Below, one piece after another: positions 5,286 to 28,085 of a DNA stretch of 32,000 bases. Position numbers and translations under genes: made by a program. The number at the start of each line of letters is the position of its first letter. The stretch's first letter is position 1. Origin of the DNA: Clostridioides sp. ES-S-0010-02 (GTDB taxonomy: Bacteria > Bacillota > Clostridia > Peptostreptococcales > Peptostreptococcaceae); assembly GCF_020641055.1 (NCBI RefSeq), contig NZ_CP067345.1; one strand, written 5' to 3'. The notes beneath the pieces are model-generated. The model saw only the letters and a list, made by a program, of their open reading frames with translations, made no database searches and had not been told where the DNA came from.

Positions 5286-5335
5286 ATGGATATAGTTTAA
5301 ACAAACTAAAATAAACTTATTTATATTCCATAAAT

Positions 5336-5452
5336 ATCTTCTCTCATCCAGACTTTACTGTCGGCTTTGGAATTTCACCAAATCAACCACATAAGTAGTT
5401 CGCGGGCTATACCGCCGGTAGGGAATCTCACCCTGCCCCGAAGATCTTCTTT
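5336..5452 (-). promoter_or_regulatory. FMN riboswitch (RFN element) aptamer
   Basis: Minus strand reads AGAAGATCTTCGGGGCAGGGTGAGATTCCCTACCGGCGGTATAGCCCGCGA...GATTTGGTGAAATTCCAAAGCCGACAGTAAAGTCTGGATGAGAGAAG. This matches the conserved RFN core blocks. Confidence 0.92.
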
Positions 5453-5508: not shown

Positions 5509-6675
5509 TTATTTTTTTTCATACACTACTTTCCCATTTATTATAGTGTAAAGTACATTACTTTGAATCTCTAGTGGAGAATTATCCCAAATTACTATAT
5601 CTGCATCTTTACCAACTTCTATAGAACCTACTCTATCTTCAATTCCTAGAGTCTTAGCTGGATTTATTGTAATGGATTCTATTGCTTTTTCTTCTTTCAT
5701 TCCATGCTTAACTGCTATCCCTGCACATATTGGAAGATATTGAACTGGTATTACTGGATGGTCTGTCATTATACATACATCAAGTCCTGCATTTGAAAGT
5801 ATTCCAGCTGTATTAAACGTTAAATTTCTAAGTTCAAATTTAGACCTTTCTGATAATGATGGCCCTACTATTACAGGAAATCCTTCTTCCAATAGCTCCT
5901 CCACTATAAGATGACCTTCTGTACAATGGTCTAATGTAAGCTTTAAATTAAACTCTTTTGCAATCCTTATGGCTGTGAACATATCATCAGCTCTATGGGC
6001 ATGTGCTTTAAAAGGAATTTCTCCTCTTAAAACGGGTATTAAACTTTCCATTTTTATATCATATTCAGGTTTTTCACAATCTTCATCATCATGACTTTCA
6101 TACAGGTCGACTTCCTCTAAATATTCTTCTGCTTTTTTAAGATTCTCTCTAAGTAATGAAGCTATTGCCATTCTAGTTTGTGGAGATTTATCATCTTGAC
6201 CATAACAGCTTTTTGGATTTTCTCCAAAGGCTATTTTAGATGCTACTGGATTTTTTATTACCATTTTATCAATTCTTTTCCCATAGGTCTTTATAGCTAT
6301 ACATTGACCTCCCATAACATTTGCACTTCCAGGAGTTGTACATACAGAAGTTATACCACCTTCAAAAGCTTCTTTAAATGTTCTGTCCATTGGATTAATC
6401 CCATCTATAGGATTTAATTGTGGTGTTATTGGGTCAGTTTCTTCATTTCCATCTGCTCCTTCAAATCCTATACCATCTTCCCACAATCCTAAATGAGTAT
6501 GGGCATCTATAAACCCTGGAAACACAAATTTACCACTTGCATCTATCACCTCTACATCTAAAGGTGCTATTAAGTCTTTTCCTATCTCTATTATTTTTCC
6601 TTGGTCTATAAGTATATCTCCCTGAATTATTCCATTTGTTATGGTATTTATATTACCATTTTTTATAAAAACCAT
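5509..6675 (-). CDS. metal-dependent amidohydrolase family protein (COG1228-like)
   Basis: PGFIDAHTHLG (HxH metal motif) near the N-terminus and a GKDADIV motif near the C-terminus. Substrate not inferable. Confidence 0.75.
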   Translation of the reverse strand: MVFIKNGNINTITNGIIQGDILIDQGKIIEIGKDLIAPLDVEVIDASGKFVFPGFIDAHTHLGLWEDGIGFEGADGNEETDPITPQLNPIDGINPMDRTFKEAFEGGITSVCTTPGSANVMGGQCIAIKTYGKRIDKMVIKNPVASKIAFGENPKSCYGQDDKSPQTRMAIASLLRENLKKAEEYLEEVDLYESHDDEDCEKPEYDIKMESLIPVLRGEIPFKAHAHRADDMFTAIRIAKEFNLKLTLDHCTEGHLIVEELLEEGFPVIVGPSLSERSKFELRNLTFNTAGILSNAGLDVCIMTDHPVIPVQYLPICAGIAVKHGMKEEKAIESITINPAKTLGIEDRVGSIEVGKDADIVIWDNSPLEIQSNVLYTIINGKVVYEKK

Positions 6676-6822
6676 TCATTTTCCTCCTGATTTTCAATAC
6701 TATACTAACTATTTTAAATATTATCTCTTTACAGTCTCATTTCATAATTTCTTAAATTTTTTATTATGCTACTTACATTTATAATTGTTACACATAAGTA
6801 TCATAACTAAACATAAATTAAC

Positions 6823-8964
6823 CTATTTTTTCATTGATAATGCAACTCTTTTTTTATTTAAATCAATTCCAATTACCTTTACATCTACTATATCACCTAC
6901 TGTAACAATACTCATAGGGTCTTTTACAAAGCTATTACTCATTTCTGATTTATGAACTAGCCCATCATTTTTTATTCCAATATCTACAAATGCTCCAAAA
7001 TCTACAACATTTCTTATTGTACCTTTTAAAGACATCCCTTCTTGTATATCTTCAATTTTTAGGACATCAGTTCTAAGTATAGGCTTTATTCCTTCTTCTC
7101 TTGGGTCTCTTCCTGGTTTTTTAATCTCAGCTATGATATCTCTTAAAGTAACTTGGCCTACTTCCAATTTTTCACTTAATTCTCTCAAACCAATTTCCTT
7201 AACTTTTTCATCTATTTCTTCTATATTTTTATTTTTTACATCATCCAAAGAATATCCTATTATTTCAATCATTTTTTTGCATATATCATAACTTTCAGGA
7301 TGTACACCTGTATTATCTAGAGGATTCTTTCCATCTAAGATTCTCATAAATCCAGCACATTGAGTAAATGCTTGAGGGCCAAGTCTTTTTACTTTTTTCA
7401 GTTGTACTCTTGATGTAAAGTCTCCATTTTCTTCTCTATATGCTATTATATTTTTTGCGATAACCTTACTTATTCCTGCAATATGCTCTAATAGAGAATA
7501 TGATGCAGTATTTAAATCTACTCCAACACTATTTACGGAATCCTCAACAACTCCATTTAATACTTCTTCTAATCTCTTCTTATTTAAGTCATGTTGATAT
7601 TGGCCTACACCTATACTCTTAGGGTCTATTTTCACAAGTTCTGCTAAGGGGTCTTGTAGTCTTCTCGCTATAGATATAGCTCCTCTTATTGATACATTTA
7701 TATCTGGATGTTCTTCATTTGCGAGTTCAGATGCTGAGTAAACTGATGCACCAGCTTCGCTGACTATAACATATTGAATGTCTCTATCTATCTCTTTTAT
7801 CATTTCTGACACAAATGTTTCTGACTCTCTTGATGCTGTCCCATTTCCTATTGAAATTATGTCTATATTATATTTTTCAATTAATTCTTTTAAAGTCTTC
7901 TTGGCCCCTTCTACATTATTTTGAGGGTCTGTTGGATATACTGTTGTATAGTCCAATAATTTACCATTTTTATCTACAACCGCTATTTTGCAACCAGTTC
8001 TAAATGCAGGGTCAAATCCCATAACTACTTTATCTTTAACTGGTGGTTGAAGTAATAAACTTTTAACATTTTTTCCAAATACACTTATAGCCCTTTCTTG
8101 AGCTATTTCTGTCAGATGATTTCTTATTTCTCTTTCTATCGATGGGAAAATTAATCTTTTATATGAATCTTCTATTGAATTTACAATTTCATCTTTATTC
8201 TTAAAGTTTTTATCATTTACATATTCATTTACTATATAATTTAAAACTTTATCATTATTTATTTCTAATTTAACTTTTAAAAAATTCTCTTTTTCTCCTC
8301 TATTTATTGCTAAAACTCTATGTGGAGCCATACTTTTCACTGCTTCACTATAATCGTAATACATATCATAAACTGATTTCTCATCAGTAGAACTTTTACT
8401 AACTATCATTCCTTCTCTTAAAGCAAGCTCTCTTATGTATTTTCTAATCTTCGCATCATCTGAAACTGTTTCTGCAATTATATCTCTTGCACCTTTTAAG
8501 GCATCCTCAACAGAAGTTACTTCTTTTTCTTCATTTATATAACTCTTCGCCTCTAAATCTATATTATCTAGATTACTCTCTAGTATTGATACTGCTAGAT
8601 TTTCTAACCCTTTTTCTTTTGCTATTGTTGCTCTAGTTCTTTTCTTTTGTTTATATGGAGCATATATATCTTCTACTTCTTGTAGTGTTTTTGCTTTTTC
8701 TATATTTTGTGTTATCTCATCTGTTAATTTTCCTTGTTCATCTATTAATCTAACTACATCATCTTTTCTACTTTGAAGGTTTCTTAGATACATCAATTTT
8801 TCATAGAATTCCCTTAATGTGACATCACTCATCTCACCAGTCATTTCTTTTCTGTATCTAGCTATAAATGGTATTGTATTTCCTTCATCAATAAGCTTTA
8901 GCGTATTATTTATTTGTTCATCTTTGAGATTAAATTCATTTTTTAAGATTTGATTTATATCCAA
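6823..8964 (-). CDS. tex: Tex-like transcription accessory protein (YqgF/HhH/S1 domains)
   Basis: N-terminal IPFIARYRKE motif, central YqgF-like and HhH regions, C-terminal S1 domain (GTIRNVVDFGAFVDIG). Apparent TTG start at 8962-8964 with an AGGAGTGA RBS. Confidence 0.9.
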   Translation of the reverse strand: MDINQILKNEFNLKDEQINNTLKLIDEGNTIPFIARYRKEMTGEMSDVTLREFYEKLMYLRNLQSRKDDVVRLIDEQGKLTDEITQNIEKAKTLQEVEDIYAPYKQKKRTRATIAKEKGLENLAVSILESNLDNIDLEAKSYINEEKEVTSVEDALKGARDIIAETVSDDAKIRKYIRELALREGMIVSKSSTDEKSVYDMYYDYSEAVKSMAPHRVLAINRGEKENFLKVKLEINNDKVLNYIVNEYVNDKNFKNKDEIVNSIEDSYKRLIFPSIEREIRNHLTEIAQERAISVFGKNVKSLLLQPPVKDKVVMGFDPAFRTGCKIAVVDKNGKLLDYTTVYPTDPQNNVEGAKKTLKELIEKYNIDIISIGNGTASRESETFVSEMIKEIDRDIQYVIVSEAGASVYSASELANEEHPDINVSIRGAISIARRLQDPLAELVKIDPKSIGVGQYQHDLNKKRLEEVLNGVVEDSVNSVGVDLNTASYSLLEHIAGISKVIAKNIIAYREENGDFTSRVQLKKVKRLGPQAFTQCAGFMRILDGKNPLDNTGVHPESYDICKKMIEIIGYSLDDVKNKNIEEIDEKVKEIGLRELSEKLEVGQVTLRDIIAEIKKPGRDPREEGIKPILRTDVLKIEDIQEGMSLKGTIRNVVDFGAFVDIGIKNDGLVHKSEMSNSFVKDPMSIVTVGDIVDVKVIGIDLNKKRVALSMKK

Positions 8965-9002
8965 TTTTTTTCACTCCTAATGTTAGTTTTTTCATAAGTA
9001 TA

Positions 9003-9068
9003 ACAAACAGAACGAAGGCTGAGGGTTGTAGTCCTCAGCCTAAGTGCTGTAAAGTGCATAGTAAGCAC
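9003..9068 (-). terminator. two tandem hairpins downstream of prfB (likely secA-prfB terminator)
   Basis: Minus strand has AGTGCT...AGCACT (9043-9068), then GGCTGAGG-acuacaac-CCTCAGCC (9017-9040), followed by a T-rich tract TTCGTTCTGTTTGTT. Confidence 0.5.
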
Positions 9069-9110
9069 TAACCTTCTTATATATCTATCCTAATTACTGT
9101 ACATTGTTTA

Positions 9111-10218
9111 TTAAACTGTCTTATTCATTTTTAAGTATTCGTTGATAAACAAGTCTATATTTCCATTCATCACACTATCTACATTTCCAAACTCAGCATT
9201 TGTCCTATGGTCTTTGACTAACTTATATGGTTGGAAAACATAGGACCTAATTTGGCTACCCCACGTTATTTGTGAGTATTTGCCTTGTATATCTTCTATT
9301 TTTTCCTTTTGCTCTAATTCTTTTAACTCTATCAATTTTGCCATCAAAAGTCTCATAGCTCTATCTTTATTTAAATGTTGAGACCTTTCATTTTGACACT
9401 GAACCACTACACCAGTAGGAATATGTGTTATTCTAACAGCTGAATCAGTTGTGTTTACATGTTGTCCTCCAGCACCAGACGCTCTATATGTGTCTATCTT
9501 CAAATCTGATGAATTAATTTCTACTTCTATATTTTCATCTAACTCTGGTGTTACATCTATAGAAGCAAATGAAGTATGTCTCTTTCCTGATGGGTCAAAT
9601 GGAGATATTCTTACCAATCTATGAACCCCTTTTTCACTTTTTAAATATCCATAAGTGTTGGTTCCTTCTACAAGAATTGTAGCTGTCTTTATTCCCGCTT
9701 CAGGGTCTGATATTATATCTAAAAGCTTAACTTTATAACCCTTACCTTCTGCCCATCTTATATACATTCTTAAAAGCATCTGAGCCCAATCTTGAGCATC
9801 TAGACCCCCAGTTCCAGCATTTATAGATAATATAGCATTATTTTTATCATACTCGCCATTTAAAAGAGTTTTTATTTTCATCTCAGATAATTTTTCTTCT
9901 ATTGATTCTATAGACATTTCTATATCCTTTTCAACAGAATCATCCTCTTCTTCTAGGCCTATTTCAATCAATACTTCTACATCTTCTAATAAGTTTTTTA
10001 GACTTTCATATTCATCTATAGTTTCTTTTAAAGCTTTGTTTTCTTGAAGTACTTTTTGCGCTACTTCATTGTCATTCCAAAAATCTTGTTTATTTATCTT
10101 CTCTTCATTAATTTTTATCTTTTCCATCAATGAAGCTACGTCAAAGAGAAACCCTCAATTCTTCTAAATTTGAAGCTATTTGCTCCACACTATGTCTATA
10201 CTCTTGTATCTTTAACAT
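9111..10218 (-). CDS. prfB: peptide chain release factor 2, made by a programmed +1 frameshift
   Basis: Frame 0 runs from the ATG at 10218 and reads MLKIQEYRHSVEQIASNLEELRVSL, ending at an in-frame TGA (10141-10143). The +1 frame continues DVASLMEKIKINE... into the 339-aa ORF, which carries the SPF tripeptide and the GGQ motif (RASGAGGQHVN). Confidence 0.93.
10140..10146 (-). promoter_or_regulatory. prfB +1 frameshift site CTT TGA C
   Basis: Exact CUU UGA C heptamer with an upstream SD-like GAGGG (minus strand TTGAGGGTTTCTCTTTGAC). Confidence 0.9.
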
Positions 10219-10232
10219 TTAATCCTCCAAAA

Positions 10233-12908
10233 CTATCTTCCACAACAGTTTTTATATTTCTTACCACTTCCACAAGGACATAAATCATTTCTTCCAACTT
10301 TTTCATCTTTTTTAATAGTTTTGCTTGTTGGAAGAGTTCCATCTGAGGGAGAAGTTAGATTTTCAACATCTACAACTGCTTTTCTTTCTACTGGAGCCTC
10401 TATTGTTATATTAAATAAATATCTTACAGTATCTTCTTTAATATGTTTATTCATCTCATCAAACATATCAAAACCTTCCATTTTATAAGCAATAACTGGG
10501 TCTTGTTGACCTACAGCACGAAGCCCTATACCTTGACGTAATTGATCCATTGCATCTATATGGTCTATCCAATGATTATCAACAGCTTGAAGTAAGATAA
10601 CTCTCTCAACTTCTCTCATTCTTTCATAACCTATTTGTTCTTCTTTTGCAGTATATATCTTCATAGCTATTTCATAAACTTTTTCTGTTATTTCAACTGG
10701 ATTAAGCTTTTCTATCTCTGGGATTTCTATACTACCTTTTGGTAAGAACAGATTATACATATGTTCCTTAAATCCTTCTTCATCAAATCCTTTATCTTTT
10801 GTATAAAGAGTCACTGATTCTTCTATTATAGAATGAGTCATTGATTGTACTTGCTCTTGTAAATCTTCACCTTCTAATACACGTTTTCTCTCTGCATATA
10901 TTATTTCTCTTTGCTTATTCATAACATCATCATATTGAAGTACATGTTTTCTTATTCCAAAGTTTTTACCTTCGACTTTCTTTTGTGCACCTTCAATAGA
11001 CTTAGATAATATTCTATGTTCTATAGGCATGTCTTCTTCAAGACCTATTTTATTTACGATTCCAGATATTCTATCGCTTCCAAACAATCTCATAAGGTCA
11101 TCATCAAGACCTATATAAAATCTTGAGCTACCTGGGTCACCTTGACGACCAGCACGACCTCTTAACTGGTTATCTATTCTTCGAGATTCATGTCTTTCTG
11201 TACCAATTATAGCAAGTCCACCTGCTTCTACTACTTGTTTTTGTTCGTCTTCTGTTTGTTGCTTAAATTGTTTATATAATCTTTCGTACTCTGCTCTAGC
11301 TTCAAATAAAATTTCATTTCCTGCCACAGGTATTCCTTCTATTGGAGTATCAACTCTATTTACTACATCTTCTTTAAATCCATTTCTTCTCATTTCTCTC
11401 TTAGTTAAGAAATCTGGATTCCCACCTAAAACTATATCAGTACCACGACCAGCCATGTTAGTAGCTATTGTAACAGCTCCAAGTCTACCTGCTTGAGCTA
11501 TTATTTCTGCTTCTTTATCATGGTGTTTAGCATTTAATACTTCATGTCTAATACCTTTTTTCTTTAATATTTGTGATAGTAGTTCTGACTTTTCTATCGA
11601 AACTGTACCTACAAGTATTGGTTGATTAACTTTATGTCTTTCAATTATTTCTTCAGCTACAGCATTAAATTTACCTATCTCACTTTTATATACACAATCT
11701 GGCAAGTCTTCTCTTACCATAAGCTTATTAGTAGGCACTTGGAAGACATCCATTTTATATATTGCTTTAAACTCTTCTTCTTCTGTTTTTGCTGTACCAG
11801 TCATACCTGAAAGTTTTTTATACATTCTAAAGTAATTTTGGAATGTTACAGTAGCTAGTGTTTTAGATTCTCTCTGTATTTTAAGACCTTCTTTTGCTTC
11901 TATTGCTTGATGCAAGCCTTCTGAATATCTTCTACCAAACATAAGTCTACCAGTAAACTCGTCAACTATTACTATTTCTCCATCTTTAGCAACATAATCA
12001 ACATCTTTTTTCATTATTACATGTGCCCTTAAAGCCTGATTTATATGGTGATATAACTCTGTATGAGATATATCTGTTATATTATCAACATTAAAATATA
12101 CTTCTGCTTTTTGTATACCTGATGCTGTTAGAGATACAGCCTTATCTTTTTCTTCTAATTCATAGTCATCAGGTTTTAAAGTTAACACAAATGTATTTGC
12201 ATCTGAATATAGGTGAGTTGATTTATCTCCAGGGCCAGATATAATAAGTGGTGTTCTAGCCTCATCTATAAGTATAGAGTCGACCTCATCCACTATCGCA
12301 TAATTTAATCCTCTTTGAACTCTTTGCTCTTTGTGTATTACCATATTGTCTTTTAAGTAGTCAAATCCATATTCATTATTTGTACCATAAGTTATATCAC
12401 AATCATATTGTTCTTTTCTAACTTTTGGATTTTGACCATGTACAATAACACCTACACTCATTCCTAAAAACTCATAAACTTTTGCCATTTGGTCTCTATC
12501 ACGTTTTGCAAGATAATCATTTACCGTTACAACATGTACACCTTTTCCAGTAAGAGCATTCAAATAAACAGGAGCAGTTGCAACCAAAGTTTTACCTTCA
12601 CCTGTTTTCATCTCAGCTATTCTTCCTTGATGTAATACTATACCTCCAATCATTTGAACTCTGTAGTGTCTAAGACCTAATACTCTTTTAGAAGTCTCTC
12701 TGACTACTGCAAATGCTTCTGGAAGTATATCATCTATACTTTCTCCATTTTCTAATCTTTCTTTAAATGTATTTGTCATATTTTTAAGTTCCGAGTCTGC
12801 CATAGATTCAAATTTAGGTTCTAATGAATCTATTATATCAACAGTCTTATTGAACTTTTTCAATTCTTTTTTATCTGCCATGTTGAATAAACTATCCATA
12901 AAGCTCAT
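10233..12908 (-). CDS. secA: preprotein translocase ATPase SecA
   Basis: Walker A (MKTGEGKT), DEAD-like [19 protein letters not shown], and a C-terminal zinc motif [14 protein letters not shown]. 891 aa. Confidence 0.97.
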
Positions 12909-13039: not shown

Positions 13040-13591
13040 TTATTCATGTTCTATTATACCATATCCGCCATTATGACGTTTATAAACTACAGCTATTTCA
13101 TCTGAATCTATATTCTTGAACATATAGAAATCATGTCCTACTAATTCCATTTGTAATACAGCTTCTTCTTCGCTCATTGGCTTAACACTAAATTTCTTAC
13201 GTCTTTGAATTACTATATCTTGATTTTCATCTTCATAATCTTCTTGTTCATCTGCTAGATTTATCTCTGCATCTTGGAATCTTATACTCTTATTGTCTTG
13301 ATGCTTATCTTGTAATCTCTTTTTATATTTTTTTAATTGTTTGCTTAATTTATCATATACAACATCTATAGCTGTGTATAAATTCTCCTGCATATCTTCT
13401 GCTCTAATTATAGGACCATTTACAGTAGCTATTGTTACTTCTATTTTTTGTCTTGTTTTTTTAGCACTTACTGTAACCTTTACATCAGTGTCTGGATGAA
13501 TGTAATTATCTAACTTACTTAACTTGCTTTCGATTTTATTTTTTATTGCATCAGTTAATTCGATTTGTTTTCCAGATATAATTATGTTCAT
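13040..13591 (-). CDS. hpf: ribosome hibernation promoting factor, long form (RaiA/YvyD family)
   Basis: MNIIISGKQIELTDAIK N-terminal S30AE domain, acidic linker, and a C-terminal dimerisation domain (KPMSEEEAVLQMELVGHDFYMF). ATG at 13591 with a GAAGGGAGA RBS. The ORF-track TTG at 13609 is probably spurious. Confidence 0.92.
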   Translation of the reverse strand: MNIIISGKQIELTDAIKNKIESKLSKLDNYIHPDTDVKVTVSAKKTRQKIEVTIATVNGPIIRAEDMQENLYTAIDVVYDKLSKQLKKYKKRLQDKHQDNKSIRFQDAEINLADEQEDYEDENQDIVIQRRKKFSVKPMSEEEAVLQMELVGHDFYMFKNIDSDEIAVVYKRHNGGYGIIEHE

Positions 13592-13644
13592 AAGTACATC
13601 TCCCTTCAATTATGCCAGTATAAGAAAATTTATACTTAAATAAT

Positions 13645-14156: not shown

Positions 14157-14831
14157 TTATTTCGAAATTATATCCACTAATTGTTTTAGCTTTTGTCTGT
14201 CTATATCTTCAAATGGATTTTTATCTATTCTAACAGCTGTACCAAAATGAAAATTATTTGCCTTAGTTACTCCCTTTATTTCAACTATATTATTAAAATT
14301 AAGACCTCCACCTAAAAGAATTTTTATATTATTAGAGTTAAGCATCATATCTTTTATAATTTTTATATTCTCTCTTATACTTCCCTTTCCCCCTGACGTT
14401 AATATATTTGTAATTCTGTCATAATTCTTTAAAAGATTAACACTTTCTATTGTATTTGATTCATCTATTGCTCTATGAAATGTAACATCAAGATTATCGC
14501 AATATTGCAACAAAAAATTTAAATTTTCTTCATCTATATTATTATTCTTGTCTAACATTCCAAATACAACTCCATTAGCTCCAATCTTTTTGACTGTATT
14601 TATATCTTTTAACATTATATTTATGTCTTCTTTACTATATACAAAGCTTTTAGCATGTGGTCTTATCATTACGTTCACAGGTATCTTTACACTGTTAACA
14701 ACACTTTCTATAAGTCCAAAACTTGGTGTTAGCCCTCCTTCAGTTAAAGCACTAACTAATTCTATTCTATCTGCGCCACAATCTTCTATAATCTTAGCGT
14801 CTTCTACTGTCATTCCTATTATCTCTAGCAT
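14157..14831 (-). CDS. cutC: CutC-family TIM-barrel protein (annotated copper homeostasis protein)
   Basis: N-terminus EDAKIIEDCGADRIELVSALTEGGLTPS and a TFHRAID motif, both typical of CutC. Last gene of the PTS operon. The upstream gene's stop is 2 nt from the cutC start. Confidence 0.85.
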   Translation of the reverse strand: MLEIIGMTVEDAKIIEDCGADRIELVSALTEGGLTPSFGLIESVVNSVKIPVNVMIRPHAKSFVYSKEDINIMLKDINTVKKIGANGVVFGMLDKNNNIDEENLNFLLQYCDNLDVTFHRAIDESNTIESVNLLKNYDRITNILTSGGKGSIRENIKIIKDMMLNSNNIKILLGGGLNFNNIVEIKGVTKANNFHFGTAVRIDKNPFEDIDRQKLKQLVDIISK

Positions 14832-14833
14832 AA

Positions 14834-15886
14834 CTACTCCTTTGCTAATTCATATATTGCATTTGAAAATATCTTTGCATTTAAGATTATATCATCTATA
14901 TCCATATATTCGTCAGGATTATGTGCTATTCCTTTTTGTCCTGGAAACGAAGGTCCAAATGGAACTATATTTGGCATTACTTTTGCATATGTACCTCCAT
15001 TAGTTGTTACTGGAGTACCATCTAATGATGTTACTCTTTCATAAGCTATTTGAAGTTTTTTAACAAGCTCACTATCCTTATCAAAATATACAGGATTAAA
15101 ATTAGAAATTACTTCTATCTCTGTACCATTGGGAAAATTAGATTTTATTTCATCTAAGACATCTTCTAGTTTATAACTAAATTCATATTTTACCTTTATC
15201 TCCAGTATTATGTAACTATTCTCTTTATGTAACTCTTGATTTGTGACAATCACCTTTTCAGACATATTTTCTATAAAGCTTAGAAATGTATCTTCCTTAT
15301 AGTTACAGTTATTTTTGATTATAATTTTCGCCATACCTTTTTCACCATATACAACAGGATATTTACAATCTGGTGTGAACCCCATTATAGGAGGTTTTTC
15401 CTTTTTTAAATAATATGGTATATCTTTAAATCCACTTTCTTCATTTGTGCCAAAAATTATCCTAACTTTTTTATCTAACTTTAAACCTAATTCCTTAATA
15501 ACATATAATCCATATAAAGCACACATTATAGGTCCTTTATTATCTAATACCCCTCTACCATAGATTTTTCCATTATATATTTCTCCTCCATAAGGTTGAT
15601 ATATCCAATTTTCCCCTTCATGTACTACATCTACGTGGCCAATTACACAGATATAATCTTCGCTATCTCCATATTCTGCATAACCAATATAATTGTCTAA
15701 GTTTCTAACTTTAAATCCTAATTTTCTTGAAATTTCTAGTGCTTTATTGAGTGCTTTTCCTACCTTTTCGCCAAAAGGGAAGTCATTTTCTGACTCCCCT
15801 TCAACGCTAGGTATTTTTACAATATCTACAATATCACTTAATAAATGTTCTTTTATCTCGTCTACTTTATTGTTTATAATATTCAT
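14834..15886 (-). CDS. M20A metallo-dipeptidase, PepV/Sapep-like with a shortened lid
   Basis: GHVDVV, GRGVLDNKG, GTNEESG, GFTPDCKYPVVYGEKG and a C-terminal HNPDEYMDIDD motif, collinear with PepV. At 350 aa it is about 120 aa shorter than typical PepV. Confidence 0.8.
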   Translation of the reverse strand: MNIINNKVDEIKEHLLSDIVDIVKIPSVEGESENDFPFGEKVGKALNKALEISRKLGFKVRNLDNYIGYAEYGDSEDYICVIGHVDVVHEGENWIYQPYGGEIYNGKIYGRGVLDNKGPIMCALYGLYVIKELGLKLDKKVRIIFGTNEESGFKDIPYYLKKEKPPIMGFTPDCKYPVVYGEKGMAKIIIKNNCNYKEDTFLSFIENMSEKVIVTNQELHKENSYIILEIKVKYEFSYKLEDVLDEIKSNFPNGTEIEVISNFNPVYFDKDSELVKKLQIAYERVTSLDGTPVTTNGGTYAKVMPNIVPFGPSFPGQKGIAHNPDEYMDIDDIILNAKIFSNAIYELAKE

Positions 15887-15939
15887 AAAAATCTCCTTTT
15901 AAATATTAAAGACTCTACTTTACTGCATAAATACAAACT

Positions 15940-16899
15940 TTATTCACTTACTTCTATTGGAGCCTTTATCCTAGCTTCATATGCTTCCATCCACTCGTTT
16001 GACACAACCTTATGTATAGTTTTACCATCTATTCTATTTGATATATACACTGTAGGTGCTTCTGCTTTAGTAGCTACTGAGAATGTAAAGTCAGCTATGT
16101 TTGTAGCTACTCCCCATTCTCCTTTATTATTCATAGCAACTAATGATAAGTCTCCAGCTTTTCCTCGTCTTTTGATAAGTTGTTCATCTAACTCATTTAC
16201 TGCTATATCACATGCCTCTTGTGGATGTTTTCCTTCTTTCATAAGTCTAACTATCTCATATGATATACACCCTTTCATCAAATCTTCTCCAAGACCAGTA
16301 GCTGTAGCCCCTCCTATGTTACTATCAACGAAAAACCCTGAACCAGATAGTGCAGAATCTCCTATTCTACCTCTTTTCTTCATAAATAGACCACTTGTTG
16401 AGGTTGCTGCACACATCTTTCCATCTCTATCTAAAGATATCATCCCAACAGTATCATGACCAGCATATGGGCTTAATCCTTTATCTAAAGTTTCTTTTTT
16501 TCTCTTCTTATAATGTAGTTTCGCTCTATCTGTTAACATATTTTTTCTTTCAAATCCATTTTTATGGGCATATTCTTCAGCTCCTATTCCAACTAAGAAA
16601 TTATTCACTTTCTCATAACTTAGTTTTCTAGCTATGCTGACAGGGTTAGAATAATCTCTTATACCTGCAACTGCTCCTATATCTAATGTGTTTCCATCCA
16701 TAAATGCAGCATCAAGTTCTACTTCACAATTTTCATTTGGAAGTCCTCCATATCCAACCGATTTATAGAATGGATAATCTTCGACTCTTCTTACAGCAAG
16801 TTCTACAGCATCTCCTGCTTCCATTCCTTTTTCTAAATGTTCTGATGCTTCAGTGATTCCTTCTATAGCCATTCTCCATGTTGCTATCATTCCCCACAT
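15940..16899 (-). CDS. Ntn-hydrolase of the asparaginase-2 family, glycosylasparaginase (aspartylglucosaminidase)-like / isoaspartyl peptidase
   Basis: GYGGLPN, autoprocessing site GHDTVGMISLD (Thr nucleophile), TSTSG...KRGRIGDSALSGSGFF, and GATATGLGEDLM. I prefer the ATG at 16899 (MWGMIATW) with an AAGGAGGG RBS 9 nt upstream. Confidence 0.85.
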   Translation of the reverse strand: MWGMIATWRMAIEGITEASEHLEKGMEAGDAVELAVRRVEDYPFYKSVGYGGLPNENCEVELDAAFMDGNTLDIGAVAGIRDYSNPVSIARKLSYEKVNNFLVGIGAEEYAHKNGFERKNMLTDRAKLHYKKRKKETLDKGLSPYAGHDTVGMISLDRDGKMCAATSTSGLFMKKRGRIGDSALSGSGFFVDSNIGGATATGLGEDLMKGCISYEIVRLMKEGKHPQEACDIAVNELDEQLIKRRGKAGDLSLVAMNNKGEWGVATNIADFTFSVATKAEAPTVYISNRIDGKTIHKVVSNEWMEAYEARIKAPIEVSE

Positions 16900-16992
16900 A
16901 TCAGAAAATCCCTCCTTAATTATAGAAACTCTATCCACATACTTTAATGTAAATAATATTTTACTTAAACCTGTCCCCTAGTAAAGTGTTAA

Positions 16993-17511
16993 TTAATAAC
17001 AAAATTCTTCTTTCATTAAAGTTATGTCTTCTTTATTTGCTATTGAATTTGCTAATTTACATATATTGTTTAGTGAATCATTAAGACCAATTCCACCTTT
17101 TTTAGGTGTCTTAACTATACATATATCATTTTTGTATTCGTTTATTACGTATGTATTTTCTTCTGACATAGCTGCAAAAGCTGGTATATCTGTTTTATTA
17201 TTTATATTTTTAGATAATATTGCTGACATCTTAGAAAAATTTTCATAGTTAAAACTTGGTCCACAAATTACTACATCAGGATTTAACTTTTTAACCATAG
17301 CTATCATTTTATTTGTCACTTCTTCTTCATTGTTTATAAAAAATTCATCCCCACAGAAAAGTGTCGCTATTACTTTAGATTCTTTTAAAAATGGTTCCAT
17401 CATTACACCTGGACCTAATGGACTTGATTTTCCAGCAGGAGGTATATTGCTTTTTTCTTTCCCACCTGCACCTGCTTGTATTTGATCCAATATCATAACT
17501 ATTTTCTTCAT
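16993..17511 (-). CDS. stand-alone protein resembling the N-terminal domain of GrdB (glycine/sarcosine/betaine reductase component B family)
   Basis: The stretch QIQAGAGGKEKSNIPPAGK...LGPGVMMEPFL...ATLFCGDEFF...LNPDVVICGPSFNYENF is collinear with the GrdB N-terminus as I recall it (INQFFAGIGGEEKADI...GPG...CGDSYF...PDLFIAGPAFNAGRYG). Only 172 aa, with no selenocysteine region. Confidence 0.6.
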   Translation of the reverse strand: MKKIVMILDQIQAGAGGKEKSNIPPAGKSSPLGPGVMMEPFLKESKVIATLFCGDEFFINNEEEVTNKMIAMVKKLNPDVVICGPSFNYENFSKMSAILSKNINNKTDIPAFAAMSEENTYVINEYKNDICIVKTPKKGGIGLNDSLNNICKLANSIANKEDITLMKEEFCY

Positions 17512-17521
17512 AATTTTCCTC

Positions 17522-18856
17522 CTATAATACTAAATCATCAAAAGATATATCATCATCTTCCTCTTCAACATTTGTTTTTTCTTCTTTTAAATATTGTTTA
17601 TCTAACATCTTTATAAATGGCATGTACATAAATATTCCTAGTACAAGAAGTATTATTTGTAATAAAGCACCTTGCCATCCTGTTGTTAGAAATCCAGAGA
17701 ATATAATTGGAGTTGTCCATGGTAATTGAACTCCATTTGTAAGTGGTACTAATCCTGCTGACATACAGAAATAGGCTATTATTATGTTTATTGTTGGAAC
17801 TATTGCAAATGGTATCAATAATATTGGGTTAAGCATTATTGGTAGACCAAATATTAATGGCTCATTTATTCCAAATATCCCTGGTAAAATTGATAATTTA
17901 CCCATTGATTTTATACGTTTACTTTTGCATATAAGTAACATAGCTATAATTAAGGATAGTGTACTACCTGCCCCACCAAATGTTGCAAACATATCCTGGA
18001 ATTGACCAGTTATTATGTTTGGTATTTTTGAACCAGCTTGAAAAGCCGCTAAATTTTCAGCTGATAAAATTTTTAATATTGGATTATAGACAGCTCCAAC
18101 AACACTACTACCATTTATTCCAAAGAACCAGAATAAATGTAAGAATATATAAGCTATTGCCATAGCACCTAAACTATTTCCTAATTTTAATAATGGCATT
18201 TGTAAAAACTTAAATATAAATTCATGTATACTTCCATATGGTGTAGCTTCAAAAGCAATCTTAACTAAAAAGAAAACTACCATAACTATTGCACTTGGTA
18301 TTAATGCAGCAAATGATTTTGAAACAGTTGGAGGAACTCCATCTGGCATCTTCAATGTCCACCCTTTTTTGACAACTACTGCAAATAACTTAACAGATGT
18401 TATTGCGGTTATCATTCCTACAAACATTCCCTTAGAACCCATCCAACCTAATGGGATACCAGTTACCATATAGACTGCCTTTGTTCCTTCTGGTGTATAT
18501 GGTATTACAAATGGTGTAACTATAAAAAAGGCGACTATTGCAACTGCTGCTGATGCAATTGGGTCTACATCTATTTGTTTAGCATAAGAGTAACCAATTC
18601 CTAAAACTGCAAGTAAAGTCATTACTTCAAAAGTCGCTATAGTTGGCTGTTGTAATTTTACTGCCCAATCTGGACCAAAAATTTGACCTACAAATTCGTC
18701 CCATCCTTTTATTGGGAAGTTTGCTACTAATAAAAATAATGACCCTATTATCAATAATGGTGATGATACTAAAAAACCATCTCTAATTGCAATTAATAAT
18801 TTATTTTTACCTATTTTTTCAGCCAACGGCATAAGTATTCTTTCCAATTTATTCAT
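17522..18856 (-). CDS. PTS lactose/cellobiose-family EIIC permease
   Basis: 444-aa polytopic membrane protein with a CelB/ChbC-like N-terminus (PLAEKIGKNKLLIAIRDGF). Flanked by the matching EIIB and EIIA genes. Confidence 0.9.
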   Translation of the reverse strand: MNKLERILMPLAEKIGKNKLLIAIRDGFLVSSPLLIIGSLFLLVANFPIKGWDEFVGQIFGPDWAVKLQQPTIATFEVMTLLAVLGIGYSYAKQIDVDPIASAAVAIVAFFIVTPFVIPYTPEGTKAVYMVTGIPLGWMGSKGMFVGMITAITSVKLFAVVVKKGWTLKMPDGVPPTVSKSFAALIPSAIVMVVFFLVKIAFEATPYGSIHEFIFKFLQMPLLKLGNSLGAMAIAYIFLHLFWFFGINGSSVVGAVYNPILKILSAENLAAFQAGSKIPNIITGQFQDMFATFGGAGSTLSLIIAMLLICKSKRIKSMGKLSILPGIFGINEPLIFGLPIMLNPILLIPFAIVPTINIIIAYFCMSAGLVPLTNGVQLPWTTPIIFSGFLTTGWQGALLQIILLVLGIFMYMPFIKMLDKQYLKEEKTNVEEEDDDISFDDLVL

Positions 18857-18894
18857 CTATCCACCCTCATTTCTCAGTATCTTTTTACTATATT

Positions 18895-19221
18895 TTAAGC
18901 TTGTTTAGATTTTATTAATTTTATAGCAAGCTTTAGTACTTTTTCTCCATTCATAGTTCCATAATCAGTTTCATTTATTATATCCACAGGTTTTCCTTGA
19001 GCTTCAAACTTTGGCTTTAACTCCTTTAGCATGTATTTAACTTGAGGTCCTAACAATATACAATCTGGATTCTTCTCTGCAACTATCTTATCAATTTCTG
19101 CTATTGGAAATGCTTCTACTTCTATTGGTAAATTGTGTTCATCTGCTACTTTCTGCATCTTTCCTGCAAGTAAGCTTGTTGACATACCAAAACTACAAAA
19201 TAAATATACTTTTCTCTTCAT
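18895..19221 (-). CDS. PTS lactose/cellobiose-family EIIB
   Basis: 108 aa, with phospho-Cys motif LFCSFGMSTSLL. Confidence 0.9.
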   Translation of the reverse strand: MKRKVYLFCSFGMSTSLLAGKMQKVADEHNLPIEVEAFPIAEIDKIVAEKNPDCILLGPQVKYMLKELKPKFEAQGKPVDIINETDYGTMNGEKVLKLAIKLIKSKQA

Positions 19222-19247
19222 TATCTTAAATCCCCCTTAATTACTTT

Positions 19248-19556
19248 TTATTTTAATTTTTGAATTTCTTTTCTTAGCACTATCATTTCTTTTATAAGGT
19301 TTCTTTCACTCATACAAGTCATTAAATGGTCTTGAGAGTGAATTAGTAAAATAGATATATCTGATTTATTTCCTCCTGCTTCCTTTTGTATAAGTTCTGT
19401 TTGTACTTTATGTGCTTTTAATATTTCTTCATTTGCACTTTCGATTAATTCATCAGCCTTTTCAAAATCGTTTTCCTTTGCACAATCAAGAGCTTCATAA
19501 AGCATAGATTTTGCATTTCCAGCATGAATTATAATCTTTAATACTATTTCTTCCAT
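19248..19556 (-). CDS. PTS lactose/cellobiose-family EIIA
   Basis: 102-aa helical protein with HAGNAKS and the active-site region IHSQDHLM. Confidence 0.9.
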   Translation of the reverse strand: MEEIVLKIIIHAGNAKSMLYEALDCAKENDFEKADELIESANEEILKAHKVQTELIQKEAGGNKSDISILLIHSQDHLMTCMSERNLIKEMIVLRKEIQKLK

Positions 19557-19595
19557 TTCTTCCTCCTAAATTACTTGTCTACTTTTAACTGATTT

Positions 19596-19608
19596 CTATC
19601 TGATAGAT
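19596..19608. promoter_or_regulatory. perfect 6-1-6 palindrome TCTATC-N-GATAGA in the PTS operon leader
   Basis: Read directly at 19596-19608, about 40 nt upstream of the EIIA ATG. Confidence 0.3.
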
Positions 19609-19622
19609 ATATAATATCTTAT

Positions 19623-19673
19623 AAAAACAAAAAAACATGCACAACTTTTTCCACTACATGGAAAATTTTGTGC
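19623..19673 (-). terminator. terminator after the PRD regulator gene; may double as an operator
   Basis: Minus strand GCACAAAATTTTCC-auguagu-GGAAAAAGTTGTGC (12 of 14 bp pair), followed by ATGTTTTTTTGTTTTT. Confidence 0.65.
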
Positions 19674-19695
19674 TTATTCACATTTTGATATAAAT

Positions 19696-21600
19696 TTATA
19701 TAAGAATATTTTTTATATTTTTAATATCACAATTACTTAGCACATCAAGCATATTTTCATCTTCTGTCAATTTAGATATTTCTTTGAATAATTCTCTAAA
19801 TACTTTTCTATCATCCTCTTTTTTATAAGCTAATAAAAGTATAATCTTTATGTATTTTCCATTTCTAATTTTTATTGGTGTTTTCAATCTTGCAAAACAT
19901 AAGACAGATTGTTTTATATACTTCATATCTCCATGAGGAAATAATATTCCTTTCCCAACATTAGTTGGATATGCCTTTTCTCTTTCTATAATAGAATTTA
20001 AATATTCTTTATCTGCATAATGCTTTTCGATTAATAAATTAGTTAAGTATGCTATAGCCTCATAAATATCATTATGTTCTAGCTCTCTTATTAAATAATC
20101 AGACATCATTAATCTATTCATAAGTTTATATGATGTATCTTTTTCTTTTATTTTGTTGGTAAATTCTTTGAGTTTATTTTCATCTTCATCAGTAAATAGT
20201 GGTGTTGTTATAAAAATTGGCTTTTGTACATTTTCATATTCTTGAAATGCAATTATAAAATCTATCATTTTATTGAAGTTATCTCTTCTTAAATCTTCTT
20301 CCCTTAGTGTTTCAACTATTTCTATATTATTAAATCTCTTTTCTATCTTTACTTTTAGTAACATACTTACTCCAAAACTAAATGGGCACACGATACTTGC
20401 TTTTTTAGTTGATTCTCTCTTATTACTTTTTCTTTCTAAAGATGTTTGAAAGTGAAGAGTAAGATAACCTATTTCATCTTCAGTTATTTGTGTTCCTTTT
20501 TGCTCAATTCCTATTGAATTTGAAATTACTGTAAATAAAAAACAAAATTTATTTTTTATATTATCTAAAAGTGGATTTTCCAAATAAACGTTACTTTGCA
20601 TTTGGTGCATTGTAACATTTAAGTGACATATTAATTGGTCATAAAGCAATATATCATTATTAAAGTTTATACCCGATTCTTCTGATACCAGATTTATAAT
20701 TCTTTTTGTATACTCTGATAATTCTTCATTAAGGTATAGTGATTTTTTAGTATCTTTACTATTTATTTGTTTATTCATGCCAAGTATTAGTGATTCTATA
20801 AATAATTTTTCTTCATGGTTTAATACTATAGATAGACTGGATTTCAACTCATTTTCTATATCTAATATAAGAATTTCTAACTTTAATTCTTTTTTAATAT
20901 TTACTATTTCAAAAGAATTCCCCAACCTTATTCGTATGATATTTATAAGTAAAAATAACATCAATTGCCTGAATGAAACATCTGTAAGTCTTATATCCAT
21001 TTTATCTTCTATTATAGACATTATATTTTTGACAACTATTATGTCTACTATATGGAAATATTCTATTTCATCCATGTTTAGTCTGTATTTATCTATATAT
21101 TTAAATAAAAATGCCACTAACATTATTCTTATGTCTTTCTCATTTCCCTCAATACATATACCACTGCCCGTTTTAGTTGAAATTTTCAAATTATAATTAC
21201 TTAATTCTACTGATAATGTATTTATTTCTTCCCTAACAATATTTTTATTTATATACAATTTATTGGACAAATCATTTAAGGTAATCTTCTTATTATTGCA
21301 AAGTAATAGATTCAATATCTCAACTTGTTTATGGAGTTCACTATTTACTCTTTTAACTTCACCTCTTAACTTCTGGTTTACTATTATTTTATCTGTATCA
21401 TCTCCACTAAACTTAATTCCTATTTTAGGCTTTCTTTTAATATAAGCACTACAAAAAGTAGACAACCATTCATCAATGTACTTACAATCATTTCTTATTG
21501 TTCTCTCTGAGCACTCAAAATCGTTAGCAATGTCATTGATATTTATAAATTCTTCTTTCAATAGCAATACTGTCAACAAGTTCTCTTGTCTTTTGTTCAT
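19696..21600 (-). CDS. PRD-domain transcriptional activator of the LicR/MtlR type (HTH-Mga-PRD-PRD-EIIB-like-EIIA-like)
   Basis: N-terminal wHTH (RQENLLTVLLLKEEFININDIANDFECSERTIRNDCKYI), two PRD-like regions, an EIIB(Gat)-like Cys (ASIVCPFSFGVSMLL), and a C-terminal EIIA(Mtl/Fru)-like GILFPHG. No AAA+/sigma-54 module. ATG at 21600 with an AAAGAGGTGA RBS. Confidence 0.85.
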   Translation of the reverse strand: MNKRQENLLTVLLLKEEFININDIANDFECSERTIRNDCKYIDEWLSTFCSAYIKRKPKIGIKFSGDDTDKIIVNQKLRGEVKRVNSELHKQVEILNLLLCNNKKITLNDLSNKLYINKNIVREEINTLSVELSNYNLKISTKTGSGICIEGNEKDIRIMLVAFLFKYIDKYRLNMDEIEYFHIVDIIVVKNIMSIIEDKMDIRLTDVSFRQLMLFLLINIIRIRLGNSFEIVNIKKELKLEILILDIENELKSSLSIVLNHEEKLFIESLILGMNKQINSKDTKKSLYLNEELSEYTKRIINLVSEESGINFNNDILLYDQLICHLNVTMHQMQSNVYLENPLLDNIKNKFCFLFTVISNSIGIEQKGTQITEDEIGYLTLHFQTSLERKSNKRESTKKASIVCPFSFGVSMLLKVKIEKRFNNIEIVETLREEDLRRDNFNKMIDFIIAFQEYENVQKPIFITTPLFTDEDENKLKEFTNKIKEKDTSYKLMNRLMMSDYLIRELEHNDIYEAIAYLTNLLIEKHYADKEYLNSIIEREKAYPTNVGKGILFPHGDMKYIKQSVLCFARLKTPIKIRNGKYIKIILLLAYKKEDDRKVFRELFKEISKLTEDENMLDVLSNCDIKNIKNILI

Positions 21601-21642
21601 ATATATCACCTCTTTATGATTCAATCTAAATTTATTATATAT

Positions 21643-21681
21643 AAAAAAGAGCTACACATAAAAACATTATGCTAGCTCTCT
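21643..21681 (-). terminator. intrinsic terminator of the ncRNA gene
   Basis: Minus strand AGAGCTAGC...GTAGCTCT hairpin, followed by TTTTTTAT. Confidence 0.7.
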
Positions 21682-21687
21682 TTTAAT

Positions 21688-21899
21688 ATGATATTTAGCT
21701 GACCTGGTCTTTGACCCCACACTCGCCTACTGGAGGGTTCGCTTGGGTTCGCCGCACTACTACTCTCTCTCGATTTTATTATCGGTAGGTCTTACTTCTA
21801 AGCCGCACCATGCTCATTAACCCAATTTTTAGTGTTAACTTACGTGGATCCTTTTGCCTGCGACTGGCTTGGACTTTCAACCACAGACCTAAATATCAC
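21688..21899 (-). ncRNA. about 212-nt structured ncRNA, probable raiA-motif RNA
   Basis: A GC-enriched island in an AT-rich, ORF-free spacer. An 11-bp closing stem joins the 5' end GTGATATTTAG (21889-21899) to the 3' end CTAAATATCAT (21688-21698). It has its own consensus promoter and terminator, and lies directly downstream of comFC in the same orientation as hpf. That is the reported genomic context of the raiA motif. Confidence 0.55.
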
Positions 21900-27920: not shown

Positions 27921-28085
27921 AAATAAAAAACCTCTCCTTATAAGAAGAGGTTAATAATCGTAATCGCATACTAATTAACTGACCTCATCTTTCAAGACTT
28001 TTGTCTTGTAGGAATTAGCACCTTTTCCCATTTGGGTGGTTGCTGGGCTTCACAGGGCCTATCCCTCAGCCGCTCTTGATAAGGT
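27921..28085 (-). promoter_or_regulatory. SAM-I (S-box) riboswitch with terminator, metK leader
   Basis: Minus strand reads CTTATCAAGAGCGGCTGAGGGATAGGCCCTGTGAAGCCCAGCAACC...AAAGGTGCTAATTCCTACAAG...GAAAGATGAGG. Then comes the terminator AACCTCTTCTTATAAGGAGAGGTT plus TTTTTATTTT (27921-27952). Confidence 0.92.

Follow-up and report, generated by a model that had tools for sequence, protein, structure and literature searches.

Asparagine-linked N-acetylglucosamine (GlcNAc-Asn) is the residue of N-glycoproteins that have been stripped and digested by gut microbes and host enzymes. In Enterococcus faecalis, a phosphotransferase system (PTS) route for this compound was demonstrated experimentally for the ega locus (Combret et al. 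2023/24, Res Microbiol 175:104169), according to the accounts of that work given elsewhere (PMC11549559; PMC11976118). Here we describe an operon located at positions 14157 to 21600 of a 32,000-nucleotide (nt) stretch of DNA (hereafter "the window") from Clostridioides sp. ES-S-0010-02 (contig NZ_CP067345.1), which belongs to a cryptic clade of the genus and is a relative of C. difficile. The list of open reading frames (ORFs) and domain searches reveal eight genes, all on the minus strand, that encode in order a regulator, the PTS proteins enzyme IIA (EIIA), EIIB, and EIIC, a protein related to GrdB, an N-terminal nucleophile (Ntn) hydrolase, an M20-family peptidase, and a CutC-family protein. 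Each carries the domain named for it in a preliminary description of this DNA, whose gene list and order are thus borne out. Judging from homology and gene order, the operon is probably the Clostridioides counterpart of ega and would import and break down GlcNAc-Asn, the final remnant of an N-glycoprotein, by the PTS and Ntn hydrolase mechanism set out below.

The ega locus (OG1RF_10933-10939) includes genes for a glycosylasparaginase, EIIB, EIIC, a dipeptidase, and a putative oxidoreductase of the GrdB type, the last of which is a pseudogene in strain OG1RF (PMC11549559). Uptake of GlcNAc-Asn by E. faecalis requires the EIIA protein CelA1 and, going by the title of the Combret et al. paper as cited in the same source, the locus matters in infection (PMC11976118). 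The preliminary description had been aware of no established PTS route of this kind, but its claim of novelty is superseded by the E. faecalis work of Combret et al. 2023, as related in these reports (PMC11549559; PMC11976118). Since the route is already established there, the operon is best viewed as a probable Clostridioides version of a known pathway.

As far as ega is described in these sources, it has in common with the window operon an EIIB and an EIIC of the lactose/cellobiose (Lac/Cel) family, a cytoplasmic glycosylasparaginase, an M20 dipeptidase, and a GrdB-type gene that follows the EIIC gene. However, the window operon has its own EIIA, whereas ega borrows CelA1, an EIIA of the Lac/Cel family. 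Likewise, the window operon is preceded by a LicR/MtlR-type PRD activator (LevR type in Clostridium), whereas the ega regulator is the GntR-family repressor EgaR. On the same descriptions, these two departures are regulatory and architectural rather than functional. The genes for EIIA, EIIB, EIIC, the GrdB-like protein, the Ntn hydrolase, the M20 peptidase, and CutC form one unit in the window, whereas ega is divided into two, egaRP and egaG-B-C-D. Finally, the window operon is closed by a CutC gene, and none is listed among OG1RF_10933-10939. What is new relative to ega, as it is described there, is the different regulator, the dedicated EIIA, and the added CutC.

A related system without a PTS is the alf-2 cluster of Lacticaseibacillus casei (Becerra et al. 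2020, PMC6960285). Its intracellular glycosylasparaginase, AsnA2, processes itself and cleaves GlcNAc-Asn; there is a genetic link to pepV, and growth on the glycoamino acid persists in a pepV mutant (PMC6960285). The authors of that study state that 1-amino-GlcNAc is not metabolisable and that it decays spontaneously only at acidic pH (PMC6960285). Both alf-2 and the window operon thus link an intracellular glycosylasparaginase to a PepV-type M20 peptidase, and the aspartate-consuming enzyme linked to alf-2 is a further likeness to clusters of the window type (PMC6960285). In contrast, alf-2 relies on a major facilitator superfamily permease that imports 6'-fucosylated substrates, has an alpha-fucosidase and an ROK sugar kinase in place of the PTS, and lacks the GrdB-like and CutC genes that the window operon has (PMC6960285). 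The cluster type is also found in Enterococcus sp. LJL98 (locus L163, positions 6672-12656), where an enzyme that is 60% identical to the window Ntn hydrolase, and that falls in the same 50%-identity cluster, is encoded in an alf-2-like array (M20-Ntn-GHL6-ROK kinase-GntR) beside fucose catabolism genes, with no PTS or CutC gene in the array. Our literature search found no paper that treats the window operon, or the use of GlcNAc-Asn, in C. difficile.

The Ntn hydrolase resembles glycosylasparaginases

When compared with all PDB sequences, the Ntn hydrolase has its best match in the glycosylasparaginase of Elizabethkingia (1p4k/9gaa; 200 bits, E = 4e-58), to which it is 42% identical in a pairwise alignment. 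Isoaspartyl peptidase/L-asparaginases reach ~117 bits in the same comparison, and taspase ~77 bits. The preliminary description, which had pointed to GYGGLPN and GHDTVGM segments, was therefore correct in placing the protein nearer to aspartylglucosaminidase than to IaaA, and both segments are indeed present. The autoprocessing site (G147-H148-D149-T150-V-G-M) aligns with HDT152IG of the Elizabethkingia enzyme, and residues W8, T150, T168, R178, D181, T201, and G202 correspond to its W11, T152, T170, R180, D183, T203, and G204. In the Elizabethkingia protein, we take Arg180, Asp183, and Gly204 to bind aspartate, and Trp11 and Phe13 to contact the sugar. By this correspondence, T150 is the predicted nucleophile of the window protein, T201-G202 its predicted oxyanion pair, and W8 the equivalent of the Trp that stacks on the sugar.

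The sole NCBIfam match of the Ntn hydrolase is to the IaaA-type beta-aspartyl-peptidase model, with a score of 121 bits against a cut-off of 567 bits, and the protein is already annotated at NCBI as N(4)-(beta-N-acetylglucosaminyl)-L-asparaginase. By homology, it is placed in the glycosylasparaginase class (EC 3.5.1.26), and activity on GlcNAc-Asn is predicted. The enzyme of Elizabethkingia (Flavobacterium) meningoseptica belongs to the same family and has its catalytic residues in common with the window protein, but the former is secreted (PMC6960285) whereas the latter is predicted to be cytoplasmic.

The gene set is conserved across many genera

One genome per GTDB species was scanned for relatives, which yielded at least 558 stretches encoding one. 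This number of candidates in species-representative genomes indicates that the system is widespread in gut Bacillota. The best 80 loci (>=68% identity) were kept, and genes were counted by tblastn with the window proteins in the 59 of these loci that include enough flanking DNA. An M20 gene adjoins the Ntn gene in 56/59 loci, and homologues of EIIB and CutC are each present in 50/59, followed by EIIC (48/59), the GrdB-like protein (40/59), EIIA (36/59), and a LicR-like regulator in the same position (26/59). All five nonregulatory partners are found together in 32 of the 59 loci, and the exact order EIIB-EIIC-GrdB-Ntn-M20-CutC is kept in 27. The taxa with this exact order are Clostridioides, Terrisporobacter, Romboutsia, Peptacetobacter, Clostridium neonatale, Eubacterium multiforme, Lachnoclostridium, Butyricicoccus, Agathobaculum, Faecalibacillus, Thomasclavelia, Longicatena, and Lachnospiraceae.

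An arrangement that recurs in the same order in so many genera is far from chance. The preliminary description had proposed to abandon its reading if these families showed no conserved co-occurrence in other genomes; the co-occurrence that we observe is strong. The same cluster was also reached by starting from the GrdB-like protein, in Tepidanaerobacter, Schnuerera, and two metagenome contigs. The five window proteins that were looked up match proteins of "Clostridioides sp. ES-S-..." genomes exactly. Furthermore, C. difficile carries the same operon: when proteins are clustered at 90%, the Ntn, GrdB-like, and EIIC proteins each fall together with C. difficile proteins, which are encoded on >1000 contigs.

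Departures from this order are also informative. The version found in Clostridium sensu stricto has a different gene order and more genes: a full-length M20 gene, pairs of M42 aminopeptidase genes (10 loci), a Lyase_1 gene of the aspartate ammonia-lyase type (18 loci), a gene for malic enzyme or for a lactate or malate dehydrogenase, and a divergent sigma-54/PRD LevR-like activator (25 loci). The added lyase, M42, and malic enzyme genes fit with peptide trimming and with aspartate as a product. At the other extreme, six Erysipelotrichaceae-type loci hold only the Ntn, M20, and CutC genes amid unrelated genes. Because these three stand alone there, we regard them as the catabolic core.

The preliminary description had also remarked on the lack of a glycoside hydrolase (GH) gene. 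Domain searches detected no GH1, GH4, or YdjC gene among the eight operon genes, and tblastn with GH4 and YdjC queries gave no match in the whole window, the search for GH1 being confined to the operon. The observation therefore stands for the window operon, but the absence is specific to this lineage, because a ChbF-like GH4 gene and a ChbG-like YdjC gene are located between the regulator and EIIA genes in its nearest relatives, Terrisporobacter, Romboutsia, and Paraclostridium (loci L004-L006, L009, and L011; ~5280-7350 in L004-L006). Clostridioides either lost these two genes or never gained them. Their presence in the three other genera makes larger substrates, such as chitobiosyl-Asn, plausible in those organisms.

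In many clusters (for example, L062 6758-7312, L164 4673-5248, L165 4164-4754, and L166 4628-5215), a gene for a small membrane protein of the RDD family (PF06271) stands between the regulator and EIIA/EIIB genes; the Clostridioides operon lacks it.

A proposed pathway for GlcNAc-Asn

PTS uptake and intracellular breakdown of Asn-linked GlcNAc, which the preliminary description had offered as one reading, are supported by the class of the Ntn hydrolase, the co-occurrence of the families, the variant clusters with aspartate or peptidase genes, the homologous set in E. faecalis, and the pairing of CutC with glycosylasparaginase genes elsewhere. Homology and synteny establish what kinds of enzyme and transporter are encoded and that the genes belong together. 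We infer the substrate in Clostridioides, where it is phosphorylated, in what order the steps proceed, and what the M20, CutC, and GrdB-like proteins do.

In the proposed scheme, host or dietary N-glycoproteins would provide the substrate after endoglycosidase and protease action. EIIA, EIIB, and EIIC would import GlcNAc-beta-Asn, and possibly very short Asn(GlcNAc) peptides, while phosphorylating the sugar at O6, as expected from the general PTS mechanism. If a neighbouring residue is present, the short M20 peptidase may remove it and thereby free the alpha-amino and alpha-carboxyl groups of Asn, as glycosylasparaginases require. The self-cleaving Ntn hydrolase, to which homology assigns the class and from which we extrapolate the substrate, would then cut the N4-amide to yield L-aspartate and 1-amino-GlcNAc, or its 6-phosphate. 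Loss of ammonia from 1-amino-GlcNAc-6-P would give GlcNAc-6-P for NagA/NagB and central metabolism. Our best guess for CutC is that it acts on the sugar product, for example, by speeding the hydrolysis of the glycosylamine at neutral pH. Finally, the family of the PRD/EIIA-domain activator suggests that it would turn the operon on according to the phosphorylation state of the PTS. With a dedicated high-affinity PTS route of this kind, C. difficile and its cryptic relatives would be able to draw carbon and nitrogen from host material.

Several points weigh against this scheme. Orthology to EgaG, EgaB, and EgaC, as these are described in the accounts of ega, is argued from gene content and from the 60%-identical Enterococcus enzyme, which comes from an alf-2-like cluster without a PTS. 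The regulator is not of the GntR type reported for ega. Acceptance of a 6-phosphorylated sugar by a glycosylasparaginase is an assumption of the scheme, and one of the two putative sugar-contacting residues is changed, Phe13 of the Elizabethkingia enzyme being Met10 in the window protein. Lastly, given the GH4 and YdjC genes of the nearest relatives, the system may originally or mainly serve a larger substrate, for instance, chitobiosyl-Asn or chitobiose.

Alternative substrates and the specificity of the transporter

This last point leads to a reading that overlaps with the proposed pathway, in which the physiological substrate is chitobiosyl-Asn (GlcNAc2-Asn) or an Asn(GlcNAc) di- or tripeptide, and GlcNAc-Asn is an intermediate. 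The ChbF-like and ChbG-like genes in the Terrisporobacter, Romboutsia, and Paraclostridium operons are in line with it, as are the near-universal peptidases (M20 in 56/59 loci and M42 pairs in 10 loci), a MupG gene in one variant cluster, and the fact that EIIC is nearest to a disaccharide transporter (ChbC). In the window, however, trimming of a second GlcNAc cannot be encoded by the operon because none of its eight genes is for a glycosidase, and tblastn found no GH4 or YdjC match in the window as a whole. In addition, E. faecalis is reported, in the account available of that work, to grow on plain GlcNAc-Asn by means of homologous EIIB and EIIC genes (PMC11976118). We consider it rather unlikely that the main substrate in Clostridioides is one of these larger compounds.

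The NCBI name of EIIC suggests a different origin for the gene set, in which an ordinary cellobiose or chitobiose PTS operon merely happens to be followed by amidase, peptidase, and CutC genes that are unrelated to it. The protein clears the equivalog cut-off of the TIGR00359 "cellobiose IIC" model (460 versus 434 bits) and matches B. cereus ChbC (PDB 3qnq) with 413 bits and ~50% identity. Nevertheless, the position of one substrate-binding residue sets the EIIC proteins of these clusters apart. In ChbC, His250 and Glu334 form hydrogen bonds with diacetylchitobiose (PMC8193941). The equivalent of Glu334 is kept in every EIIC that we compared, whether from the clusters or unrelated. In contrast, the position of His250 is occupied by Asn248 in the window protein and by Asn in 58/58 cluster EIICs, even those that are only 40% identical, whereas two unrelated EIICs encoded in the same loci retain His. 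Because Asn is found at this position in all cluster EIICs, they probably constitute a distinct specificity subfamily, which argues that the label "cellobiose IIC" is an over-extension when applied to them. The Asn-for-His250 subfamily is recognisable, and this should help to correct the annotation "cellobiose transporter."

The gene content points in the same direction. The transporter family and the Glu334 equivalent are common to the window operon and to the systems represented by E. coli chb (chbBCARFG) and B. cereus ChbC. However, the chb system includes ChbF and ChbG, for which counterparts exist in Terrisporobacter and Romboutsia (GH4 and YdjC, respectively) but not in the window, and the enzymes encoded downstream of the window PTS are predicted to cleave amide bonds rather than glycosidic bonds. 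There is no phospho-beta-glucosidase gene in the operon, and a GH4 query gave no match elsewhere in the window. Both the gaps of 2-93 nt and the order conserved across many genera argue for one unit. Together with the Asn at the ChbC His250 position, these features led us to reject a plain cellobiose operon, which is very improbable.

Salvage of beta-aspartyl (isoaspartyl) peptides or asparagine, with the Ntn hydrolase as an IaaA-like peptidase working with the dipeptidase, might be proposed from its sole NCBIfam match, from certain distant homologues annotated as isoaspartyl peptidase, and from the adjoining dipeptidase gene, but it can hardly be expected given how far that match falls below its cut-off (121 versus 567 bits), the ~80 bits in favour of glycosylasparaginase in the PDB comparison, the retained sugar-contact Trp, the unlikelihood that a sugar PTS imports plain peptides, and the occurrence of Elizabethkingia-enzyme relatives in PTS-free loci among GH20, GH2, and GH92 N-glycan glycosidases.

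CutC accompanies glycosylasparaginases in PTS-free loci

The CutC protein of the window operon matches PDB 4r9x with 203 bits, and its gene, as noted above, accompanies the Ntn gene in most of the Bacillota loci. The preliminary description had suggested that CutC genes are sometimes found next to glycosylasparaginase genes in other phyla, which it took to favour a catabolic role over a copper role. We searched metagenome contigs using an alignment with the Elizabethkingia enzyme at its head. Of the 80 loci most similar to this enzyme, which were retained, 56 have >=1.5 kb of downstream sequence. A CutC gene is present in 40 of these 56 loci of Elizabethkingia-type (Flavobacterium-type) glycosylasparaginase, and in 35 it lies on the same strand and <=700 nt downstream of the glycosylasparaginase gene. 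No homologue of the PTS, M20, or GrdB-like genes of the window was detected in these metagenome loci. The suggested pairing outside the Bacillota operons is confirmed for these PTS-free metagenome loci.

The glycosylasparaginases of these loci are 62-90% identical to the Elizabethkingia enzyme and about 32-40% identical to that of the window, and their ORFs have extra N-terminal residues. The neighbours that were sampled are genes for GH20 hexosaminidase, GH2 beta-mannosidase-like, and GH92 alpha-mannosidase proteins, which are enzymes of N-glycan core breakdown. The pairing of CutC with glycosylasparaginase across very different bacteria is a fresh point of this analysis. Our literature search found no paper that discusses a link of CutC to asparaginase or glycosylasparaginase; the associations of VirK, CutC, NixI, and an asparaginase in a Xanthomonas paper are all database predictions.

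An alignment of CutC proteins from both groups of loci reveals invariant Glu, Arg, His, and Asp residues as well as glycine-rich loops. Cys residues have been proposed as Cu(I) ligands in CutC, but the Cys position of the "RIELC" motif is occupied by Val in the window protein and varies elsewhere. Invariant polar residues combined with a variable Cys look like an enzyme active site rather than a thiolate copper site. A copper role was rejected for this reason and because the neighbours in both the Bacillota and the PTS-free loci are sugar and amide catabolic genes. We tentatively propose, at somewhat less than an even chance, that CutC has a catalytic role in the glycosylasparaginase pathway of N-glycan core catabolism. 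A more specific suggestion, which must be considered doubtful, is that CutC perhaps converts 1-amino-GlcNAc or its 6-phosphate to GlcNAc or GlcNAc-6-P and ammonia at neutral pH, at which the compound decays only slowly by itself. If the proposed role is true, a protein that is filed under copper homeostasis and that is conserved up to humans would be an N-glycan core enzyme working with glycosylasparaginase.

Two individual loci deserve mention. In locus L160 (7658-11902), a glycosylasparaginase-CutC pair is followed by PSCyt, PSD1, and DUF1501 genes. Such genes are typical of Planctomycetota and Verrucomicrobiota, so that the pairing may reach phyla other than Bacteroidota and Bacillota. In the metagenome variant with MupG (L165 10722-11813), this gene, of the 6-phospho-N-acetylmuramidase type, lies right after the CutC gene, which hints that some clusters also process phosphorylated amino-sugar disaccharides.

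The M20 peptidase and the GrdB-like protein

The M20 peptidase of the operon is shorter than PepV (PDB 1lfw), which aligns to it at PepV positions 12-194 and 367-467 and whose positions 195-366 have no counterpart. About 60 residues of the window protein (191-249) stand where PepV has ~170 lid residues, so that there is no full lid domain of ~200 residues. The metal ligands (H84, D115, E149/E150, D173, and H322) are present and align with the PepV motifs, and the catalytic Glu is included among these residues. The reduced lid could leave room for a glycosylated side chain.

The GrdB-like protein covers only positions 2-168 of the 347 positions of the PF07355 profile, which correspond to its N-terminal half. 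GrdB proper is a protein of ~435 amino acids (aa) that contains a selenocysteine encoded by an in-frame UGA and whose gene has grdA, grdC, grdD, and grdE as neighbours. A glycine reductase role was rejected for the window protein, which has only 172 aa, has no selenocysteine, and is encoded among PTS and hydrolase genes instead of grd genes. We found no sequence relative of this protein in the PDB. Its AlphaFold2 model (pLDDT 96.7) is a flavodoxin-like alpha/beta domain for which Foldseek returned no significant match, the weak ones being CheY receiver domains (E = 2e-3, TM ~0.47) and, at rank 3, the N-domain of MlrC. Because these matches are not significant, no function was drawn from the folds.

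Cys53 and Cys83 are invariant in the GrdB-like proteins. The gene starts 10 nt after the EIIC gene, and it directly follows EIIC in the same cluster in every case sampled. The GrdB-like protein is probably not essential for the use of GlcNAc-Asn, because this use was studied, according to the accounts cited above, in OG1RF, where the corresponding gene is a pseudogene (PMC11549559; PMC11976118). It is thus probably a conserved accessory part that is linked to EIIC and dispensable for plain GlcNAc-Asn. For both CutC and the selenium-free GrdB-like proteins, which have been orphan families, the operon provides a concrete and testable biochemical context.

A second Lac/Cel PTS (EIIA, EIIC, and EIIB) is located beside the glycosylasparaginase cluster in Tepidanaerobacter syntrophicus (L081/L082 12967-16484). 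It has its own PRD regulator, and its only enzyme gene encodes MlrC/DUF1485, a microcystinase C-like peptidase. This is another PTS that is paired with a peptidase and lacks a glycosidase. The nonsignificant resemblance of the GrdB-like model to the MlrC N-domain may be a coincidence.

Gene layout, regulation, and neighbouring features

The features of the operon are listed in Table 1. From the regulator to CutC, the gaps between the genes are 139, 26, 38, 10, 93, 53, and 2 nt. The spacing of 2-93 nt given in the preliminary description holds once the 139-nt gap between the regulator and EIIA genes is treated separately. The Ntn gene was taken to start at the ATG at 16899 and not at the GTG at 16938, because its homologues, among the 120 closest matches listed (all >=58% identical), have 316-320 aa. 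For the regulator gene, the ATG at 21600 is the most likely start rather than the TTG at 21624, because a ribosome-binding site (AGAGGTGA) precedes the ATG.

Table 1. Coordinates of the operon features in the window
Feature	Position	Strand	Evidence
LicR/MtlR-type PRD activator	19696..21600	-	HTH_11 12-69, Mga 101-172, PRD 308-394, EIIA_2 509-634 (Pfam)
Hairpin and U-run in the regulator/EIIA gap	19620..19679	-	Folding, -19.2 kcal/mol
PTS EIIA, lactose/cellobiose family	19248..19556	-	PF02255, 129 bits; under the equivalog cut-offs of the lactose, cellobiose, and chitobiose EIIA models
PTS EIIB, lactose/cellobiose family	18895..19221	-	PF02302, 65.8 bits
PTS EIIC, membrane permease, ChbC-like	17522..18856	-	TIGR00410/TIGR00359, 460 bits
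GrdB-related protein without selenocysteine, 172 aa	16993..17511	-	NF041545 "GrdB_like_no_Se", 244 bits
Asparaginase_2 Ntn hydrolase, 319 aa, predicted cytoplasmic glycosylasparaginase	15940..16899	-	PF01112, 206 bits
Short M20A (PepV/Sapep-like) metallopeptidase, 350 aa	14834..15886	-	TIGR01887, 355 bits in two stretches
CutC-family TIM-barrel protein	14157..14831	-	PF03932, 163 bits

In addition to its HTH_11, Mga, PRD, and C-terminal EIIA_2 domains, the regulator has an EIIB-like region with a Cys. The hairpin in the gap that follows its gene, at ~19633-19679, has a z-score of -4.4, and none of 200 shuffled sequences is equally stable; a U-run follows the stem. The stem is kept with paired changes in Clostridioides, Terrisporobacter, and Romboutsia, and is more conserved than the surrounding intergenic DNA. 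Its pattern is AAGCAyAA..TTTTCC-loop-GGAAAA..TTrTGC followed by a T-run. A consensus terminator scan of the region called no terminator. The hairpin is nonetheless terminator-like, and the DNA palindrome may double as an operator. When the sequence was read by eye, no comparable hairpin was noticed after cutC. The preliminary description had placed the sole terminator that it found between the regulator and EIIA genes.

The operon is flanked by recD2, comF, and a raiA RNA on one side and by hpf and secA on the other. The raiA RNA is full-length (Rfam RF03072, 184 bits; 21690-21897, minus strand) and is located between the comF-like gene and the PTS regulator gene, with a strong hairpin and U-run after it at ~21640-21680. 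The hpf gene, a homologue of raiA, is found at 13609..13040, 8 kb beyond the raiA RNA, and the whole Clostridioides PTS operon lies between them. Neither the raiA RNA nor hpf borders the operon in Terrisporobacter or Romboutsia. Elsewhere in the window are two ordinary riboswitches, both on the minus strand: an FMN riboswitch at 5332-5449 (123 bits) and a SAM riboswitch at 27982-28085 (94 bits).

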